From positions 1,608,989 through 1,672,988 of the forward strand of contig MTMF02000009.1 of NCBI GenBank assembly GCA_002011125.2: 64,000 nucleotides of DNA. The letters run 5' to 3'. Both the position numbers and the translations under genes were made by a program. The first letter of the stretch is position 1; each line of letters starts with the position of its first letter. The DNA comes from Candidatus Hydrothermarchaeum profundi (GTDB taxonomy: Archaea; Hydrothermarchaeota; Hydrothermarchaeia; Hydrothermarchaeales; Hydrothermarchaeaceae). Positions 3,207-29,852 of this stretch are shown one piece after another. The notes under the pieces were generated by a model. It was not told the origin of the DNA, did not search any database, and saw only the letters and a program-made list of their open reading frames with translations.

Positions 3207-3716
3207 CCTTAGAAGTAGCTCGAGGTAGGATCTTCGTTCTATGTTCTCTATAGGAACTCTTAATTCCTCTACAATTTCCAATAGTTCTTCAGGTTTATAG
3301 GTTTCCTCAAGCTTTTCGATTTCTATAAATTTTCCTAATCCCTCTACATCGTCCAGAAATATATTAAACTTTTCAGAGCGGTATGTTATTCGTTCTTTTT
3401 TTACACAACCTACCTCTTTAAATCCAAGGCGATTAAGTATCGTTCCCATTTTCTTAGCATCACTTATTGAGATTTCAATCTCTTCTCTCGTCTTAGTAAC
3501 TTTGTCTAATTTAGGACCCTTATAGGTAAGCCTGAAATTTCCATTTACTTCTCTTACCCGTAAGGCTTCATCTGTCTGTGAAAAATCACGGTTGGGATGG
3601 GAATAGTAATAATCCGTCTGTCTCTCTTTTTTAAAAAATTTGAATCCTAGTTCTCTTATCCTCTTTTGGGTGATGGTTGGATTATCCAGTTTAACCTTTA
3701 CTTCTACCTCTATCAT
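3201..3716 (-). CDS. cyaB: CYTH-domain protein (class IV adenylate cyclase family)
   Basis: EVEVK (ExExK) N-terminus, LRVR, LTYKGP and FIEIE motifs. Start moved to the ATG at 3716. Confidence 0.85.
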   Translation of the reverse strand: MIEVEVKVKLDNPTITQKRIRELGFKFFKKERQTDYYYSHPNRDFSQTDEALRVREVNGNFRLTYKGPKLDKVTKTREEIEISISDAKKMGTILNRLGFKEVGCVKKERITYRSEKFNIFLDDVEGLGKFIEIEKLEETYKPEELLEIVEELRVPIENIERRSYLELLLRL

Positions 3717-3768
3717 TTCTACCACTTCGAAGAAAGGTTTTCTATTAGATAGCCGCAAGTATTCAACT

Positions 3769-4659
3769 ATGTTCTCAGAGTTCTTGTTAAATAAGTATCG
3801 TTTATTATTTGATAATGATACTATTCGCGGTTTGACCGCGCCATTATCGCCTTCAATCCGAGCGAATACTCTGCGTATAAATGAAAGAACACTTGTAAGA
3901 AGACTTACAGAGAAAGGGATTGAGTTAGAAAAAATCTCCTGGGTGAAGCACGGCTATCTAGTTAAAGATTCTCCATTTTCATTAGGTGCTACTACGGAAT
4001 ATCTAATGGGTTATTATCAACTGCAAGACCCTGCTTCGATGTATTCCTGCGAAGTACTTGAACCCAAAAAAGGTGAGGTAATCCTTGATATGGCTGCCGC
4101 TCCAGGAGGAAAAACCACATATATTTCACAACTAATGATGAACAAAGGAACTATAGTATCCTTAGAATTGAATAGGGATCGTATGCGTTCTTTAAGATCT
4201 ACTATAACCCGTATGGGAGCAGAGAATGTAATAGCTATTAGAATGGACGCCAGAAACTCGGGTGAACTTGGAATAATATTTGATAGGATCCTCCTTGATG
4301 CCCCATGCACAGGTACGGGTACTGTTTTTAAGAATCCTGAAGCTGGTAAAAAGGGCCATAGTGACGTGGAAACGTGCTGTACTTTGCAGGCCTCTTTAAT
4401 TAAGACCGCTCATGGCATCCTTAAAAAGAAAGGTATTCTGGTTTATAGTACCTGCAGTATATTACCAGAGGAAAACGAATTAATAATAAAGGACGCCCTA
4501 AACTCTGGATTTAAATTACTGAATGTACCCTATGGTGTCGAGGCATTTACCCAAGTATATGGCATGCATTTAGGTAATAAGATGAAGTTTGCAAAAAGAT
4601 TTTACCCTCATACACATGGGACACAGGGATTTTTCATCGCTAAACTGCAGAAGATTTAA
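3769..4659 (+). CDS. NOL1/NOP2/Sun RNA (cytosine-C5) methyltransferase
   Basis: Motifs DMAAAPGGKT, ILLDAPCTGTG and VYSTCS. Start moved to the ATG at 3769 to avoid overlapping cyaB. Confidence 0.92.
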   Translation: MFSEFLLNKYRLLFDNDTIRGLTAPLSPSIRANTLRINERTLVRRLTEKGIELEKISWVKHGYLVKDSPFSLGATTEYLMGYYQLQDPASMYSCEVLEPKKGEVILDMAAAPGGKTTYISQLMMNKGTIVSLELNRDRMRSLRSTITRMGAENVIAIRMDARNSGELGIIFDRILLDAPCTGTGTVFKNPEAGKKGHSDVETCCTLQASLIKTAHGILKKKGILVYSTCSILPEENELIIKDALNSGFKLLNVPYGVEAFTQVYGMHLGNKMKFAKRFYPHTHGTQGFFIAKLQKI

Positions 4660-5063: not shown

Positions 5064-5606
5064 TTATGCCCTTTCGAACTTGGAGACCGTTAGAGGCGTA
5101 GAAAAATATTCACCACTAATATGACAGAGAGGTTTTGCTTTTTCAAGGAGGACTACTTTGTCGAAAACCTCGCTCTTGACCTCAGCTTCTATTATCTCTC
5201 CAGCTATAAGCACGTGATCCCCTAATACTGCGGAGTGGATCATTTTACACTCAAGCCAAGCGAAGGCTTCCTTTATTCTGGGCGGCCTAATTTTTCTAGA
5301 AGGTTCTTCAGTTAAATTCGCTTCTTTAATCTCGCTGACACCATATGGATAGTCCTTTTCTAAAATCTTCATCAAAGGCCCGAATTCTTCGCCAATAATG
5401 TTAACCACGAATTCTTTGTTTTCTTTTATATTTCGCCATGTATCATGTTTTGGATTTGAAAATATTGCTATTATCGGAGGCGAGAAGCTTACTGGAGAAT
5501 TAAAACTAAATGGCGCGGCATTTGACACGCCCTCTTTCGAAATAGTTGAAACTACGATCACCGGCCTAATTAAAAGTTTCATAAAATCTTTAGGCTTTAA
5601 CCTCAT
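5064..5606 (-). CDS. Flavin reductase-like FMN-binding protein
   Basis: Motifs NAAPFSF, TWRNI...EFVVNI and GDH. Confidence 0.85.
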   Translation of the reverse strand: MRLKPKDFMKLLIRPVIVVSTISKEGVSNAAPFSFNSPVSFSPPIIAIFSNPKHDTWRNIKENKEFVVNIIGEEFGPLMKILEKDYPYGVSEIKEANLTEEPSRKIRPPRIKEAFAWLECKMIHSAVLGDHVLIAGEIIEAEVKSEVFDKVVLLEKAKPLCHISGEYFSTPLTVSKFERA

Positions 5607-6436
5607 TGCCTATCACCCTCCAGCATCATATAGGTTTTAACTATTTCTAAGTATGGTGCAATAAATAAACCAATTATTATAATTGCAATGTTTTGAAATC
5701 CCCGTAGTAAAAAAAATAATAATTCGTTAACATGCGCGAAGAATAGTGCTGGCAATGAAAAAAGAAGGGATAAAAAACTTGTAAGTAAGGTGGTGCCCAA
5801 TACAAGTAATATGTAAAGCATGACCTCTATCTTGTATACTCTTACGAATTTTATGCTTTCTATGAAACCATCTATAATTCCGGCCTTCTTAACTGCTATC
5901 GCCTGGGGAGTAAAAAATGTTAGAAAATAAATCAATACCATTAATATGCCGAAAAATAGAAGCAGAAATATTGAAATTGTAATATCCCCAAATACTAAAG
6001 GAATAACGGCTGTTGAGAGAATCGCTATGGAAAAAGTTCCGATAATCAACATATATAATAGGATATCCAATCCATATTTTTTTATCCCCTCAAGTCCATC
6101 AGAGAGGGAAACTCTCTTTCCTTCATAACCAGTTATCGCCATCTCTATAATAGCCGCTCTTGCAAATGCGTTAAAGACTAAGAATATCAAAACCATTGAA
6201 AAAACGCTGAATAAAAAGAACGCAAAAAGATAAAAAGGCGTACTACTTTGAATAAAAGTCACCATAGACCCTATATCAAAGGGCTGAAGCGAGATCCCCA
6301 CAATTATAACTAAAAGTATGGCGAAAAATATTAGAACGAAAATGTCAGCGAGATATTCAAGTACATGCGGGACTACAAATTTAAGATTTTTCTTATAAAG
6401 GGAAAAAGATGAAGAGAGGATGCCCCGCATATCCAT
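5603..6436 (-). CDS. Uncharacterised multi-pass membrane protein
   Basis: About 6 hydrophobic segments; translationally coupled to its neighbours. Confidence 0.75.
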   Translation of the reverse strand: MDMRGILSSSFSLYKKNLKFVVPHVLEYLADIFVLIFFAILLVIIVGISLQPFDIGSMVTFIQSSTPFYLFAFFLFSVFSMVLIFLVFNAFARAAIIEMAITGYEGKRVSLSDGLEGIKKYGLDILLYMLIIGTFSIAILSTAVIPLVFGDITISIFLLLFFGILMVLIYFLTFFTPQAIAVKKAGIIDGFIESIKFVRVYKIEVMLYILLVLGTTLLTSFLSLLFSLPALFFAHVNELLFFLLRGFQNIAIIIIGLFIAPYLEIVKTYMMLEGDRQ

Positions 6437-22888: not shown

Positions 22889-24394
22889 TTGTTAAGACTT
22901 ACTCCTATGCGGATTGCAATCCTAGTTTTTATAATGACCGTAGCAACCGCTTATGCTTATAGTCCCCACGAAGACCCATCAAAACATCCTGGAGCTTACT
23001 GTATAAACTGCCACAAGAGATTTATCGTAGATAACCCTACCGTGGTAGAGATGTTTCCATGTAATAAACAGCCATGTCATAGTTTAGGTGAGGAGGAAAG
23101 GGCCGCTATCCATCTAAAAGAATACATGTGCGAGGACTGCCATGCAGCAATGTCAAAAGGCTTCGACATCCACAACATCCACAGAGGAAAAGTCAACTGC
23201 AAGATATGCCACCTCAGCCCCAGAGGATGGAACTCATCCATAGCAACAATACCAGAGCCAACAAAAAAAATAGAATCAGAAGGCTACACCATCTACATAC
23301 CCGGAGACACCAAATGCCCATACTGCCACAAAACAGCAGAAAAACCAAAAAAACTACACCAAGTACACCAGCCAGTAATCAACACATCCTGCAAGACATG
23401 CCACGGAAGTCTACATAAAGGGGATATCTGCATTAATTGCCATGTGAAATATTCCATCAAAAAGAATTCGGGCTGCATAACTGCATGTCATAGTTTAGGT
23501 GAGGAGGAAAGGGCCGCTATCCATCTAAAAGAATACATGTGCGAGGACTGCCATGCAGCAATGTCAAAAGGCTTCGACATCCACAACATCCACAGAGGAA
23601 AAGTCAACTGCAAGATATGCCACCTCAGCCCCAGAGGATGGAACTCATCCATAGCAACAATACCAGAGCCAACAAAAAAAATAGAATCAGAAGGCTACAC
23701 CATCTACATACCCGGAGACACCAAATGCCCATACTGCCACAAAACAGCAGAAAAACCAAAAAAACTACACCAAGTACACCAGCCAGTAATCAACACATCC
23801 TGCAAGACATGCCACGGAAAAATGAAGCCCTCTATTCTAAAACTATGGGGAATAGAAGCTAAAAAAATTAAGAAAGAGGGTTTATTAGAATCATTAAATA
23901 AAAAAATCTCTAGCATTTTCCAAGCAAAAGTAGATATGAGCTGTAATTTATGCCATGAAGAACTAGTATCAAGTTTCTATACAAGCCCTGTTACTAAAAA
24001 AATCTCTAAAGTACATATGTGGGCTAGCCAAGCAGACATCTTTTTCGGGCCTAACGGAGAACTGAAATATGAAATGGAGTTTACAATTAATAATGAGAGT
24101 ACTGCCTGCCTATTATGTCACAAGATAGAAACAGTTAACGTTTATACAGGGAGCCATAAGATATACTGGAGAAAATGTACTAATGAAAGCTGTCATGGAG
24201 ATATAGCCTCAAATGGTACACGAATCTTCGTGGATGCAGGTAGCTTTAACTTGCCTGCATCAGCTAGAAATAGTCACGGATTATGGATTCAAAAAATAGA
24301 AAAAAAAGGATGGACTCAGGGATTTAGAGAAATCTGCGGTTGTCATCAGATACATCCTACCTACTCAAGAAGCTTAATAACCTCTGTTTTATAA
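22889..24394 (+). CDS. Secreted multiheme cytochrome c with 12 CxxCH, 3 CX3-4CH and 1 CxCH motifs
   Basis: Sec signal peptide (…TAYA|YSP). Heme motifs counted by eye. It has two tandem hexaheme modules plus a C-terminal tetraheme-like domain. Confidence 0.92.
   Translation: MLRLTPMRIAILVFIMTVATAYAYSPHEDPSKHPGAYCINCHKRFIVDNPTVVEMFPCNKQPCHSLGEEERAAIHLKEYMCEDCHAAMSKGFDIHNIHRGKVNCKICHLSPRGWNSSIATIPEPTKKIESEGYTIYIPGDTKCPYCHKTAEKPKKLHQVHQPVINTSCKTCHGSLHKGDICINCHVKYSIKKNSGCITACHSLGEEERAAIHLKEYMCEDCHAAMSKGFDIHNIHRGKVNCKICHLSPRGWNSSIATIPEPTKKIESEGYTIYIPGDTKCPYCHKTAEKPKKLHQVHQPVINTSCKTCHGKMKPSILKLWGIEAKKIKKEGLLESLNKKISSIFQAKVDMSCNLCHEELVSSFYTSPVTKKISKVHMWASQADIFFGPNGELKYEMEFTINNESTACLLCHKIETVNVYTGSHKIYWRKCTNESCHGDIASNGTRIFVDAGSFNLPASARNSHGLWIQKIEKKGWTQGFREICGCHQIHPTYSRSLITSVL
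23073..23819 (+). repeat. Perfect 336-bp intragenic direct repeat (23073-23408 and 23484-23819)
   Basis: CATGTCATAGTTTAGG...GACATGCCACGGAA occurs twice, offset by 411 bp (in frame), with a 75-bp unique spacer. Confidence 0.93.
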
Positions 24395-26100
24395 GTATCA
24401 AGCATATTTTTGATCTCTATCTCGTTTAATTTTCCTTGTGAACTTTCAGTTTCAAAGAATCTTTTTGGAATCCTAATCGCATCTAAATTAAAGCCTTCTC
24501 TTGTCTTAAACTTATATTTTATCTTGAAAATTTCCTTACCTATACCTAAAAATTCCTCTACCTCCTTCTGGATTCCTAAAGAGTTAAGAGCTTTTTCTAT
24601 TCGCTCTGGGGTATAAACCTCCCTTGCGAATAAGCATATCACGAGGGAATTAGCAAAACACCGCCAATAGTCTTCTCTCAATAAATTACTTACAATTTCG
24701 GTCTCTCTTAATTTACCTTTCAATAATTTTTGATCCAAGCTGTATCCCGCATTATCCAGGTGCCCATGTCTCGGACCGGCTATGTGCCCTATAAGATTCG
24801 CCCTGCCCGTATGATAACCAGCCATACCGAGCCCCCCTAACGATAAAGCATATTCCTCTCCACCAAACTTTTGTGCAGCCGCCGTTTCACCTTTAGCTAA
24901 GGCCTTATAAAAATCATTGGGCATCTTAACAATATACTGGACGGCCTTTTTATAGGCCTCCACATTACCAAAAGCCAGATCTATGCCAAGAGTATCATGT
25001 TTAGATATGAGATGGTTTTCATAGGCCTCCGTTGCCCAAGAGAGAGTCGTCCCAGTAGACATTGCATCTAGCCCCAAATGATCCACAGACTCTATTAAAC
25101 TTAGAACTTGCTCTGCCAGAGGTATCCCTAACAAGCTACCTAGCGCGAATATAGGCTCATAATCATAAGGGATCCTTTTGGTCTCGAATTCGAATCCCCT
25201 GGCAAAAGGAATCTGCATTGTAGCTATATGAATACATCCAACCGGACAAGCAGTACATGCAATGTGCTTCGCCATATAATTCTCAGCAAGATGCTCCCCT
25301 GAGATATACTCGGCATACTCAAAAGTAGAAGATTTAAGATTCCTAGTCGGCAAGCCCCTAATCTGATTCAAGGGATTGACATTAATAGCAGTACCATAAT
25401 CATGGTATTTGTTAAGACTATCAGTATTCACAATAACATCATACAACTCTTTATATGCCTTCAAATATCCTTTTTTATCCTCCATAGGTAGGTCTTTTGA
25501 ACCAGAAATCGCAATGGCTTTAAGATTCTTGCTCCCAAATACCGCTCCTAAGCCAAGCCTACCAAAATGTCTGTATGTGTCAACATTTACATTTGCATAT
25601 CTTACTAAGTTCTCTCCTGCGGGACCGATCCTTATTATACTCCTTCTACCTGGAGCGGGTTCTACATCCCTTAAAATCTTTCCCACAGTATACGCTGAAG
25701 ATATACCCCATATCGATCTCGCATCCTTAAAGTAAACTTTTTCATTTTGGATGGATAGATAAACCGGGCGATCACTTTTTCCTTTTATAACAATAGCCAT
25801 GTTTCCAGAGAAACGCATAGCGGCACCTAGCCTACCACCAGCATAGCTCTCGCCTAATTCGTTTGTCAAAGGAGATTTAAAAAGAGCAACCGCCTTAGTA
25901 CATGTAGGAAATGCCCCAGTTAAAGGTCCGGTAGATAGGATTATTGGATTCTCAGGGCTGAGAGGGTCTACGCCTTTGGGACAGTTCTCCATAAGGAGGC
26001 TTATACCTACCCCTACCCCCCCAATATATTTCTCAAAAAGGTCTTTTCTTTCCTCCTGATACACTTCTCTATTTCCAAGGTTAATGTAAAGTACATTCAT
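24361..26100 (-). CDS. Aldehyde:ferredoxin oxidoreductase family (W/Mo-pterin) enzyme
   Basis: Motifs KSPLT...GESYAGG, IGPAGENLV, GRLGLGAVFGSKNLKAI, CTACPVGC, DYE and GLDAMSTG. Confidence 0.93.
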   Translation of the reverse strand: MNVLYINLGNREVYQEERKDLFEKYIGGVGVGISLLMENCPKGVDPLSPENPIILSTGPLTGAFPTCTKAVALFKSPLTNELGESYAGGRLGAAMRFSGNMAIVIKGKSDRPVYLSIQNEKVYFKDARSIWGISSAYTVGKILRDVEPAPGRRSIIRIGPAGENLVRYANVNVDTYRHFGRLGLGAVFGSKNLKAIAISGSKDLPMEDKKGYLKAYKELYDVIVNTDSLNKYHDYGTAINVNPLNQIRGLPTRNLKSSTFEYAEYISGEHLAENYMAKHIACTACPVGCIHIATMQIPFARGFEFETKRIPYDYEPIFALGSLLGIPLAEQVLSLIESVDHLGLDAMSTGTTLSWATEAYENHLISKHDTLGIDLAFGNVEAYKKAVQYIVKMPNDFYKALAKGETAAAQKFGGEEYALSLGGLGMAGYHTGRANLIGHIAGPRHGHLDNAGYSLDQKLLKGKLRETEIVSNLLREDYWRCFANSLVICLFAREVYTPERIEKALNSLGIQKEVEEFLGIGKEIFKIKYKFKTREGFNLDAIRIPKRFFETESSQGKLNEIEIKNMLDTYKTEVIKLLE

Positions 26101-26501
26101 AGTACTTCAAACCTCTCAAGTTCAAGAATATCATGGGGGCAAAATTTAGCACAAGCTCCGCATTGAATACATATTAGCGGCTGATTTAGTTCTTCATCAA
26201 ACTCGATGGCCCCGAGAAGGCAAGCTTCAACGCATTTTTTACAACCAGTACACTTTTCTTTTATAAAATAAAGGCTATCTCTAACTTCAATAGCATACTC
26301 AGGACATGAAGCTACACATGGAGGGTCTTCACACATCCTACATGCAACAATTGCAAATTCACTTTCTATTCCGCCTGTAGTTTTAACATGTATAGCGCTC
26401 CTATCCGTAGAAATAACCCCATATCTCGTTCTAGCACATGCAAAAACGCAACTCATACAGCCGATACACCGCTCTGGATTCTTTACTTTTATCCTCTTCA
26501 T
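26097..26501 (-). CDS. 4Fe-4S polyferredoxin-type electron-transfer subunit of the AOR
   Basis: Motifs CIGCMSCVFAC, CRMCEDPPCVASCP, CTGCKKCVEAC and CIQCGACAKFCP; overlaps the AOR start. Confidence 0.92.
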   Translation of the reverse strand: MKRIKVKNPERCIGCMSCVFACARTRYGVISTDRSAIHVKTTGGIESEFAIVACRMCEDPPCVASCPEYAIEVRDSLYFIKEKCTGCKKCVEACLLGAIEFDEELNQPLICIQCGACAKFCPHDILELERFEVL

Positions 26502-28304: not shown

Positions 28305-29015
28305 ATGCGGCTGACTAATATGTATAGGGAGTATACAAAGTACTTAGCGTTTGTAATCGCTATTACAGCGGCCTTCGAGTTGGTATACGCATATAATCCC
28401 TACGAAAACCCTAAGACTCACCTAGGAGCAATTTGTATTGACTGCCATAAGCGGTTTAAAGATGTTATCGATAATCCAACTGTATCTTCTTTCAGACCAT
28501 GTTATAAAGATGACTGTCATTTATCTGCAGATAAATGGGGAGGCAAGTCGAAGAGGGAAAGCCTACATCTCTCACGAGAAATCTGCAAAAATTGCCATAC
28601 TGAGATTCACACCACCCATAGAGATCGAGTAAATTGCAGAGTATGCCACATGAGTCCTAGGGGATGGAACTCCTCAAAAGTAAGGATACCTGTATCCAAG
28701 GAACAGAGGGTTTTTGAGGAGATGACCATTACTATACCTGGTAGCGCAGAATGTTCCTATTGCCACTTTAAAATTCCTAGTGCAAAAAACATACACGAGG
28801 TACATTCTCCAGAACTAAAGAATAACCAAACATGCTTAAAATGCCATGGGAAAGTAATCGAGAAGCGGCCTGACCTTATAGCTAAGATGAGTGGTGAAAA
28901 GATTGAAGAAAAGAAAAGAGGTTTAATGAACTCTCGGCCAATAGTTGAATTTATTAGGTTTTATAACCTAATAACGATGCAGCTGATAGAGCTATTTACA
29001 TCAAAGGTGAGATAA
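28305..29015 (+). CDS. Secreted hexaheme cytochrome c, paralog of the repeated module of 22889
   Basis: Signal peptide (…VYA|YNP); heme motifs CIDCH, CYKDDCH, CKNCH, CRVCH, CSYCH and CLKCH; shares VNCxxCHxSPRGWNSS with 22889; C-terminal amphipathic helix. Confidence 0.9.
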   Translation: MRLTNMYREYTKYLAFVIAITAAFELVYAYNPYENPKTHLGAICIDCHKRFKDVIDNPTVSSFRPCYKDDCHLSADKWGGKSKRESLHLSREICKNCHTEIHTTHRDRVNCRVCHMSPRGWNSSKVRIPVSKEQRVFEEMTITIPGSAECSYCHFKIPSAKNIHEVHSPELKNNQTCLKCHGKVIEKRPDLIAKMSGEKIEEKKRGLMNSRPIVEFIRFYNLITMQLIELFTSKVR

Positions 29016-29852
29016 GTGGTTTTTCAACATCAATATCAATATCAGTATCAATATCAAACACAACTAGGATTTCAATATCAGTCTTTTGACCAGCTTATCC
29101 ACGAGCTTCCATTAACGGTTATTGTCCTTTCAATTTTTATAGCTTTGAGCCCTTTTTTTATATATTTACTTCATAGAAGAGGCGTTATTCCATCCGTCAT
29201 GAAACCTATTTTTAAGGCAGGATTACTTGTAAAAACAAAGTTAAGAGATAGAAGCATAAAATCTAGGATAACCGATGAATATACTAGTCTCAGAGATAAG
29301 AGAATAGAGTTCGGTTCGGTCGTATCCTTGGGTTTTTACTTGGCAAACGTCGTATTATTTTTATTGGTAGCTACAAAGATGATATTTTTTGGATTAGTGG
29401 TTTCTCAATCTATGCTTCCTACTCTAGCGCCTGCCGACTTAGTACTTTGTGAAGCTATCTCGATAAATAGTATAGAAAAAGGCGATATAGTTGTATTCTC
29501 GCCTCCAAACGGTGGCCCTATGACAATTCACAGGGTAGTAAGAGTGGGCCCGGATGGAATTAGAACCCGCGGGGATAACGTGGGGACAATGGACCCATGG
29601 ACGCTGAAGAAAGAGGATATCGTAGGTAAAGCGGTCATGGTTAATGGTAAACCCGTTATTCTAAAGAACTTTGGAACATATTTTATGCCTCGAAGAACTT
29701 ATATTCCAGGATCTGATCCCGCGTATGATTTTGTTAGAGGCATGATAAACGCCGTACATAGGTTTGGTCCGATATTTATTATATCTCTTGCTCTCTTAGC
29801 CCTAGTGTTCAGTTTTGGGGGAAAAAAGAAAAGGTATCTAACATATTCTTAA
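29016..29852 (+). CDS. Signal peptidase I (S26, archaeal Ser/His type)
   Basis: Motifs SQSMLPTL, GDIVVF, IHRVV and RTRGDN; extra TM segments. The start is uncertain. Confidence 0.85.
   Translation: MVFQHQYQYQYQYQTQLGFQYQSFDQLIHELPLTVIVLSIFIALSPFFIYLLHRRGVIPSVMKPIFKAGLLVKTKLRDRSIKSRITDEYTSLRDKRIEFGSVVSLGFYLANVVLFLLVATKMIFFGLVVSQSMLPTLAPADLVLCEAISINSIEKGDIVVFSPPNGGPMTIHRVVRVGPDGIRTRGDNVGTMDPWTLKKEDIVGKAVMVNGKPVILKNFGTYFMPRRTYIPGSDPAYDFVRGMINAVHRFGPIFIISLALLALVFSFGGKKKRYLTYS

Follow-up and report, generated by a model that had tools for sequence, protein, structure and literature searches.

The window, a stretch of 64,000 nucleotides from the archaeon Candidatus Hydrothermarchaeum profundi, carries on its + strand a gene for a multiheme c-type cytochrome whose product shows Pfam matches to the MtrC/MtrF-like II/IV domain and to cytochrome c7. 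An exact direct repeat lies inside this gene, and a paralog with a single module is located downstream. The features, numbered by window position, are as follows:

22889..24394, + strand: multiheme c-type cytochrome gene; open reading frame from a TTG at 22889, likely ATG start at 22907, 12 CxxCH motifs
23073..23408, + strand: exact direct repeat of 336 bp, copy 1; delimited by extension of the identity, 100% in self-BLAST, recovered as its own 336-nt unitig in read runs X1 and X2
23484..23819, + strand: exact direct repeat of 336 bp, copy 2; 100% in self-BLAST, period 411 nt (137 codons)
23073..23143, + strand: repeat head, copy 1; identical in both copies, normal codon use, T at the third position of 7/23 codons
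23484..23554, + strand: repeat head, copy 2; counterpart of 23073..23143
23144..23407, + strand: skewed tract, copy 1; 88 codons, none ending in T and 6 ending in G, mean GC skew −0.33, mean TA skew −0.57
23555..23818, + strand: skewed tract, copy 2; same sequence as the tract of copy 1
23409..23483, + strand: unique spacer of 75 nt separating the copies; encodes a linker that holds a single CINCH site, normal codon use
28305..29015, + strand: cytochrome paralog with a single module; normal codon use, T at the third position of 71/236 codons

The initial annotation had singled out 23144-23407 and 23555-23818 as perfect copies lacking T-ending codons. Both stretches are indeed identical over 264 nt and in frame with the open reading frame, but the exact repeat really extends over 336 bp. 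A recount of the 88 codons reproduced the absence of T and the six G-ending codons, the third position being A in 44, C in 38, G in 6 (ATG, TGG, two AAG, GAG and CAG) and T in none. At the 4-fold sites of the tract, A accounts for 0.71 and C for 0.29, with G and T both at 0, and the 24 two-fold pyrimidine codons use C without exception. T is found at 16 first and 16 second codon positions of the tract and at 0/88 third positions. The free use of T-ending codons outside the tract, also claimed at the outset, holds for the 5' flank (21/61), the spacer (9/26), the 3' flank (59/191) and the paralog (71/236 over 28305-29012), a T-ending share of 31-35% across these stretches; with a T3 of 0.314 genome-wide, a run of 88 consecutive T-free codons has a probability of ~4e-15. 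At codon positions 1 and 2 the effect goes in the expected direction but is small: A or C occupies both in 38/88 codons of the tract, 20/61 and 59/191 of the flanks and 73/236 of the paralog.

When calculated in 150-nt windows with a step of 30, the mean skews of the 336-bp repeat are |GC| 0.26 and |TA| 0.50, rising to 0.33 and 0.57 for the tract alone, and both are negative on the + strand in 7/7 windows of the repeat. Both skews exceed 0.15 with the same sign in only 2.7% of background 150-nt windows, the background GC-TA correlation being −0.52. The keto skew of the repeat is −0.35, against a background SD of 0.077 in 350-bp windows. The first 71 nt of the repeat (23 whole codons) are identical between the copies yet unbiased; the bias thus lies inside the repeat without filling its whole length. 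We read this head as an edge of the repeat that was converted recently.

Copy number and concerted evolution

The state of the repeat in sequencing reads was followed in runs X1 and X2, which are possibly the source samples and hence not independent, and in a third run, X3; the data are unitigs, so that all depths are rough. In both X1 and X2 a 135-nt unitig covering 23379-23513 (depth 67.1 and 49.5, respectively) links the end of the repeat, the unique spacer and the start of the repeat, which supports a genuine tandem duplication. The left-flank unitig terminates 30 nt inside the repeat in these runs, and the repeat forms a separate unitig of 336 nt. Relative to the flank, the rough X1 depths of 1.7x for the repeat unitig and 0.74x for the spacer fit a mixture of two-copy and one-copy genomes. 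The X2 depths are flat, at 54.6 for the repeat unitig against 52.9 and 56.2 for the flanks; they show no doubling and, being rough, are not read as copy number. A protein on record, P0001, equals the window protein minus exactly one 137-residue period, implying either that a one-copy form coexists with the two-copy form or that the repeat collapsed in another assembly. This protein and the even depth in X2 are what speaks for an assembly artefact without true duplication, a possibility raised in the initial annotation. The joining unitig present in both runs (with the reservation about their independence) and the X1 depths (rough as they are) speak against it, and the skew is independent of copy number; we regard an artefact as very improbable.

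Run X3 contains a relative that is ~90-94% identical, whose contigs end within the repeat, at 23281 and 23672. Over the 148 nt of tract from 23672 to 23819 this relative has 3 listed differences (A>C, C>A and G>A), compared with 8 listed in the next 138 nt, the contigs being of low depth and the numbers small. The relative therefore shares the skew; the tract is not hypervariable and gives no hint of hypermutation.

Among homologues, P0002 (503 aa, 57% identity) shares the arrangement in two modules, and its modules are identical to each other over 99 residues with an offset of 137 residues, as in the window protein. Relatives at 44-51% identity contain two or three diverged modules. Since P0002 maintains an identical module pair of its own, the duplication appears to be old and its copies to have evolved in concert, through long-term gene conversion; comparison of the sequences thus indicates homogenisation by conversion of an old duplication rather than a recent duplication. 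Inter-module identity in P0002 begins ~10 residues later than in the window protein, which fits the unbiased 71-nt head as a recent extension of the converted tract. The nearest genomes (41 in one search, 38 of the class in another) are GC-rich and yielded best protein identities of 46-49%; at this distance silent sites have reached saturation, so that comparison of orthologues gives no ancestral codons. Searches of metagenome contigs with the window protein and P0002 as queries found no relative.

Skewed tracts across the genome and replication polarity

The genome (2.19 Mb in 19 contigs, 39% GC) is poor in repeats, with 19 pairs genome-wide that reach 150 bp in length and 85% identity. All of the eight local near-identical repeats (<2 kb apart, at least 180 bp) have GC and TA skews at silent sites that are intense and correlated, their copies being spaced 120-1898 nt apart:

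Permease pair: 182 bp
Multiheme cytochrome of 2042 residues: 1332 bp, with 336 consecutive codons lacking A at the third position
DUF1573 pair: 209 bp
Giant ORF: 351 bp
Beta-propeller gene: four 120-bp units
S-layer gene: 976 bp
Duplicated small cytochrome cassette: 683 bp
Window cytochrome gene: 336 bp, the only one of the eight with an A/C-rich coding strand

Converting repeats are found in surface and electron-transfer proteins, namely multiheme cytochromes and the S-layer protein. Strong skew was seen in 0/3 distant exact repeats (251, 720 and 476 bp), and pairs that have diverged to 85-94% identity, local ones included, mostly have |keto skew| of at most 0.13. The edges of skew coincide with the edges of identity, also in old paralogs with diverged flanks such as the FtsX-like and DUF1573 genes, and other identical tracts of the genome are likewise embedded in old, diverged paralogs.

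Seven of the eight tracts have a G/T-rich coding strand, the mirror image of the window tract. At the 4-fold sites of the A-free tracts A is 0, C ~0.11, G ~0.29 and T ~0.60, and two-fold purine codons end in G without exception; the window tract shows exactly the complementary composition. With A at 0, C is retained at 5-24% of 2-fold pyrimidine sites and at ~11% of 4-fold sites of the A-free tracts, while the S-layer and beta-propeller tracts keep a small remainder of A. The 4-fold AT content of the tracts (0.60-0.71) stays near the background of 0.67, as does GC (0.29-0.40 against 0.33), and the 4-fold purine share falls from 0.48 to ~0.29.

A whole-genome scan for period-3 runs lacking A or T over at least 84 positions, of the kind that the initial annotation had called for, returned 17 runs on contig C9. 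The expected coincidence with repeats was found for 12 of them, which lie in five local-repeat pairs including that of the window, but three fall in the single-copy mtmC-mtmB operon. The remaining runs, at 317539 and 1831677, were set aside as unrelated composition effects. Shorter runs, 40-80 positions long, that lack T or A mostly fall at the first codon position or in proteins of low complexity (such as the Lys-rich tail at 867404) and are a different phenomenon. Skewed tracts produce long false open frames on the opposite strand or in other phases; the greedy ORF caller used here chose such frames within skewed tracts, for example over mtmB, and its gene-level lists are accordingly approximate.

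The mtmC-mtmB operon, whose MtmB gene has an in-frame TAG, contains ~10 A-ending codons in ~675, while its neighbours are normal. No second copy was found in the assembly by tblastn; a tandem copy collapsed in the assembly is possible. In a polysaccharide island (343-357 kb), which has no repeats, genes reach T3 values as low as 0.09-0.12, and at C9:568720-568912 a single-copy stretch runs for 65 codons without A at the third position. The operon and the island show that the bias is not strictly limited to repeats. The earlier statement that it is confined to the repeat of the window was therefore too narrow, given also the seven other local repeats, and that of a repeat-linked process that keeps copies identical and rewrites them fares better, as it fits the skew in 8/8 local repeats and the agreement of skew and identity edges, with the single-copy stretches as exceptions.

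The sign of the skew is related to replication. Cumulative GC skew of C9, a scaffold with four gaps, is lowest near 0.48 Mb and highest near 1.54 Mb, and an Orc1/Cdc6 gene is located at the minimum (C9:482668-482937). Four tracts lie between 0.48 and 1.54 Mb and have a G/T-rich + strand, and the four beyond 1.54 Mb have an A/C-rich one; that is, in 8/8 tracts the leading strand of replication is the one rich in G+T. Likewise, 49/55 of the most extreme 200-bp windows carry the sign of their replichore, compared with 61% of all windows. Gene orientation is balanced (875 genes co-oriented with replication, 835 anti-oriented), and the genome-wide baseline asymmetry is mild, with T at 0.371 and A at 0.307 of the 4-fold sites of co-oriented genes. 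The window gene is transcribed against replication, and its coding strand is therefore the A+C-rich one. A strand asymmetry had been proposed from the window alone; it is present, but it follows the DNA (replication) strand rather than the coding strand.

Genes of both orientations in the polysaccharide island follow this DNA-strand rule, and an anti-oriented kinase gene at 1.01 Mb contains an A/C-coded tract (1010616) that agrees with it. This tract belongs to a distant pair, 373651/1010616, of which the copy at 373651 has the wrong sign for its replichore. Nine of ~10 skewed tracts lie in co-oriented genes, so that a coding-strand rule would fit all except the window and 1010616 tracts.

Relation to GRINS and other known systems

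GRINS, reported in 2021 as protein-recoding elements that accelerate module exchange, are duplicated stretches with >80% identity, >500 bp in length, and with mean |GC| and |TA| skews >0.15 that are correlated; their skew is strongest at third positions and is tied to gene conversion (PMC8256042). They occur in bacteria of five phyla and in PKS genes of amoebae and choanoflagellates, single-copy skewed stretches have been reported as well, and in Streptomyces the sign flips inside one element, within 1 kb; the main text makes no mention of archaea, mismatch repair or replication origins (PMC8256042). None of the open-access papers searched described archaeal GRINS by title or by the start of the abstract.

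The window repeat has 100% identity between copies 411 nt apart at the same locus, skews well above the GRINS thresholds, and GC and TA skews of the same sign, against a background in which the two are negatively correlated; the skew resides at third positions and the open reading frame is intact, with its 12 CxxCH motifs. Gene conversion is suggested indirectly, by the identical module pair that P0002 has of its own and by the identical tracts embedded in diverged paralogs elsewhere in the genome. At 336 bp the repeat falls short of the length cut-off, while three other loci of the genome (1332, 976 and 683 bp) have all the properties by which GRINS are defined. The likeness extends to near-identical coding duplicates, intense same-sign skews, the third-position maximum, the intact protein, the link between repeats and gene conversion, and the existence of single-copy skewed stretches. 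GRINS also show a mild shift in amino-acid use, and the first two codon positions of the window tract lean slightly in that direction. The differences are that the host is a low-GC archaeon and the genes encode multiheme cytochromes, an S-layer protein, a permease and others; that the window copies are 100% identical, whereas those in the published example are 75-95% identical (PMC8256042); and that here one base is wholly purged, the sign does not switch within a tract, and the sign tracks the replichore. The window repeat is a small archaeal GRINS-like gene-conversion repeat below the formal GRINS length. It belongs to a published but unexplained kind, to which replication polarity is the new clue; the sign switches in Streptomyces mean that such polarity is not the whole story everywhere. 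The repeat-linked, strand-asymmetric process inferred in the initial annotation is to this extent partly supported, fitting both the genome-wide pattern and published GRINS.

Two features of NucS/EndoMS biology parallel the tracts. EndoMS cleaves G/T, G/G and T/T mismatches but hardly A/C, A/A and C/C (Ishino et al. 2016, PMC4838380), a blind spot that corresponds to the keto/amino split seen here. For wild-type C. glutamicum, a second report gives leading-strand counts of 48 A>G against 13 T>C and of 67 C>T against 40 G>A (Takemoto et al. 2018, PMC6159521). On those figures the leading strand of this NucS organism gains G and T, with an A>G asymmetry above that of C>T, an ordering that matches the complete loss of A and partial loss of C in the tracts. 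Replication asymmetry of the ordinary kind differs, in that the genome-wide effect is mild and the skew of the tracts is near-absolute, with sharp limits set by repeat identity. GC-biased gene conversion is similar in that its fixation bias is restricted to sites of heteroduplex formation and looks like selection at silent sites; it differs in raising GC on both strands, whereas here 4-fold GC is about unchanged and the strands are polarised. A diversity-generating retroelement was considered and rejected: there is no RVT_1 match in the genome (97.65% complete), the copies are identical, and the tracts reach 1.3 kb. Searches of the open-access literature found no published link between NucS and skewed repeats, and no account of this pattern in work on EndoMS with gene conversion or on gene conversion with strand asymmetry in archaea.

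Origin of the skew

In its general form, a conversion-linked, replication-polarised process of the GRINS kind has, in our judgement, an even chance of being the correct explanation. Against it stand the single-copy skew of mtmC-mtmB, the repeat-free skew of the polysaccharide island, the preponderance of tracts in co-oriented genes, the wrong-sign copy at 373651 and the gaps in C9. One rival is a mutation-driven skew, in which repeats stall forks or recombine, the exposed lagging-strand template (of leading-sense sequence) is damaged by conversion of A to hypoxanthine and of C to U and by oxidation of G, giving A>G, C>T and G>T, and gene conversion merely keeps the copies alike. A G+T-rich leading-sense strand is the direction expected from exposure of the lagging-strand template, the organism comes from subsurface or hydrothermal samples where heat might speed deamination, and the repeat-free skew of mtmC-mtmB and the polysaccharide island is more easily obtained by local exposure than by conversion. 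Cytosine deamination is chemically faster than adenine deamination, and yet A is purged fully and C only partly. Moreover, the drop in 4-fold purines is beyond the reach of transitions alone, fewer differences from the X3 relative are listed for the tract (3) than for its flank (8), numbers that are small and come from low depth, and the sharp boundaries at the identity edges suit conversion tracts better. Because 4-fold AT is unchanged while the choice of strand is polarised, the pattern resembles a sorting of alleles rather than pure transition pressure, and a fixation bias is favoured over strand damage by the unchanged AT, the falling purine share, the absence of extra divergence in the tract and the restriction to close copies. 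Damage as the driving force is accordingly unlikely, though a genuine contender. The GRINS authors placed skew first and conversion second, proposing in their Discussion error-prone synthesis, for example by stabilisation of tautomeric bases, after which low complexity promotes conversion (PMC8256042). Single-copy skewed stretches such as mtmC-mtmB and C9:568720-568912 could be the 'initial substrates' of such a process; it offers no reason for a replichore polarity of 8/8, and the identical but unskewed 71-nt head shows that identity can come before skew at the edge of a tract. This order of events seems to us quite improbable.

Import of the module from a donor with extreme A/C-ending codons, offered in the initial annotation, would suit a composition so sharply bounded and foreign-looking. 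It does not withstand the mirror-image G/T tracts at at least seven other loci of the same genome, sorted by replichore, nor the native codon use of the repeat head and spacer; the module is old and, with its duplication, common to homologues at 44-57% identity as a vertically shared part of the gene family, and no donor with such codon use and a near-identical module was found in the 41 and 38 genomes, protein records and metagenome contigs searched. We consider import extremely improbable. Selection on codons or mRNA, whether for a translation speed that aids heme attachment or for an unstructured A/C-rich mRNA, could account for skew at silent sites of an intact gene. The high-expression signature of this genome is a different one, rich in C3 and G3 and poor in A3 and T3; other cytochrome modules have the opposite skew; and the sign tracks the DNA strand and not the gene, the window and 1010616 tracts breaking a shared transcription sign. 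Selection of this kind is scarcely plausible.

Returning to a conversion-linked process polarised by replication, we propose the following model. The two modules would derive from an old internal duplication of a heme-binding module, held identical by recurrent gene conversion that pushes silent sites to an extreme keto/amino strand skew. Replication would polarise this skew, such that the leading-strand sequence drops all A and most C at silent sites; as the cytochrome gene faces the fork, its coding strand would be the complement, with no T3 and little G3. Conversion between copies <2 kb apart may occur at the fork, where the nascent lagging-sense strand would anneal to the lagging-strand template of the other copy. 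NucS/EndoMS would then cut G/T, G/G and T/T mismatches, sparing only those conversions by which the lagging-sense strand receives A or C, and the outcome would be a strand-polarised biased conversion that resembles selection at silent sites and drives the leading-sense strand towards G and T. The genome encodes NucS/EndoMS, as judged by a NucS_C match of 82 bits at C8:104791; a weak MutS_V match (43.9 bits) counts against a NucS-based proposal. Identity, skew, their coincidence in close copies across the genome, the agreement of sign with replichore and the concerted evolution of P0002 are observed; the conversion step and the mismatch bias are what we infer, and fork-polarised conversion filtered by NucS/EndoMS is, as a specific mechanism, a tentative suggestion with the balance of probability against it.

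The persistence of C in tracts where A is at 0 runs against a mismatch filter, under which the leading-sense strand should lose A and C equally, and the NucS model leaves both this and the sign switches of Streptomyces unaccounted for. We also considered whether GRINS skew in general is the footprint of strand-polarised biased gene conversion at the replication fork, with NucS/EndoMS rejecting half of the conversions. Such a generalisation is doubtful.

Actinobacteria rely on NucS, and GRINS are abundant in them. If true, the general proposal would account for the restriction of skew in this genome to repeats within ~2 kb, for its sign following the replichore and for the abundance of GRINS in Actinobacteria. 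For annotation, skewed tracts of this kind are not to be taken for foreign DNA. The skew is tied here to the replication strand and to close-lying copies, with NucS/EndoMS as a concrete candidate enzyme, and with one clear origin, few repeats and 8/8 tracts in agreement with the fork, this archaeon offers a cleaner study system than Streptomyces.

Neighbourhood of the cytochrome gene

Immediately 3' of the multiheme cytochrome gene, and convergent to it, are an oxidoreductase gene and a ferredoxin gene; beyond this pair lie a second cytochrome, which has a single module, and a signal peptidase.

Window 24361-26498, - strand: aldehyde:ferredoxin oxidoreductase gene and 4Fe-4S ferredoxin gene
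Window 28305-29852: second cytochrome and S26-type signal peptidase

Skewed loci elsewhere on the main scaffold

Keto/amino skew was also observed at the following loci on C9, the gapped scaffold.

C9:343000-357000, genes on both strands: glycosyltransferase and polysaccharide gene island
C9:363851-364236, - strand: repeat-protein gene adjoining the scaffold gap 363906-364005
C9:1094312-1126849, + strand: giant protein, a stop-free frame of 10,846 codons
C9:1885098-1887157 (L005 3098-5157), - strand: mtmC-mtmB operon

Throughout the polysaccharide island the + strand is A/C-rich at silent sites for genes of either strand, with T3 (codons ending in T) as low as 0.09, and this interval contains no repeats. 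The repeat-protein gene displays a very strong keto skew (-0.5 to -0.6) at the assembly gap; this gap probably results from additional identical copies. The giant ORF carries one skewed identical tract near its 3' end, the second copy of which lies within the next ORF (C9:1126843-1127661). Codons ending in A are nearly absent across the entire mtmC-mtmB operon despite its single copy in the assembly; within MtmB, a TAG lies in frame around codon 202, the pyrrolysine position.

Other repeats in the genome

C1 (whole contig); C9:770605-771895; C9:786213-788424: exact repeat arrays
C9:1475556-1476031 and C9:1858437-1858912: duplicated 150-codon gene

The arrays, composed of exact repeats of ~40 nt spaced ~73-76 nt, look like CRISPR arrays. 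The two gene copies are 100% identical and 383 kb apart with the terminus between them; their codons are C3/G3-rich without keto/amino skew.

False reading frames

Skewed tracts open long false frames of 187-433 codons, antisense to the gene or in an alternative phase.

L004 (C9:1838001-1846000) 3462-4025 and 5101-5712, + strand: false frames
L005 3158-4459, + strand: false frame

These frames could be mistaken for genes in annotation.
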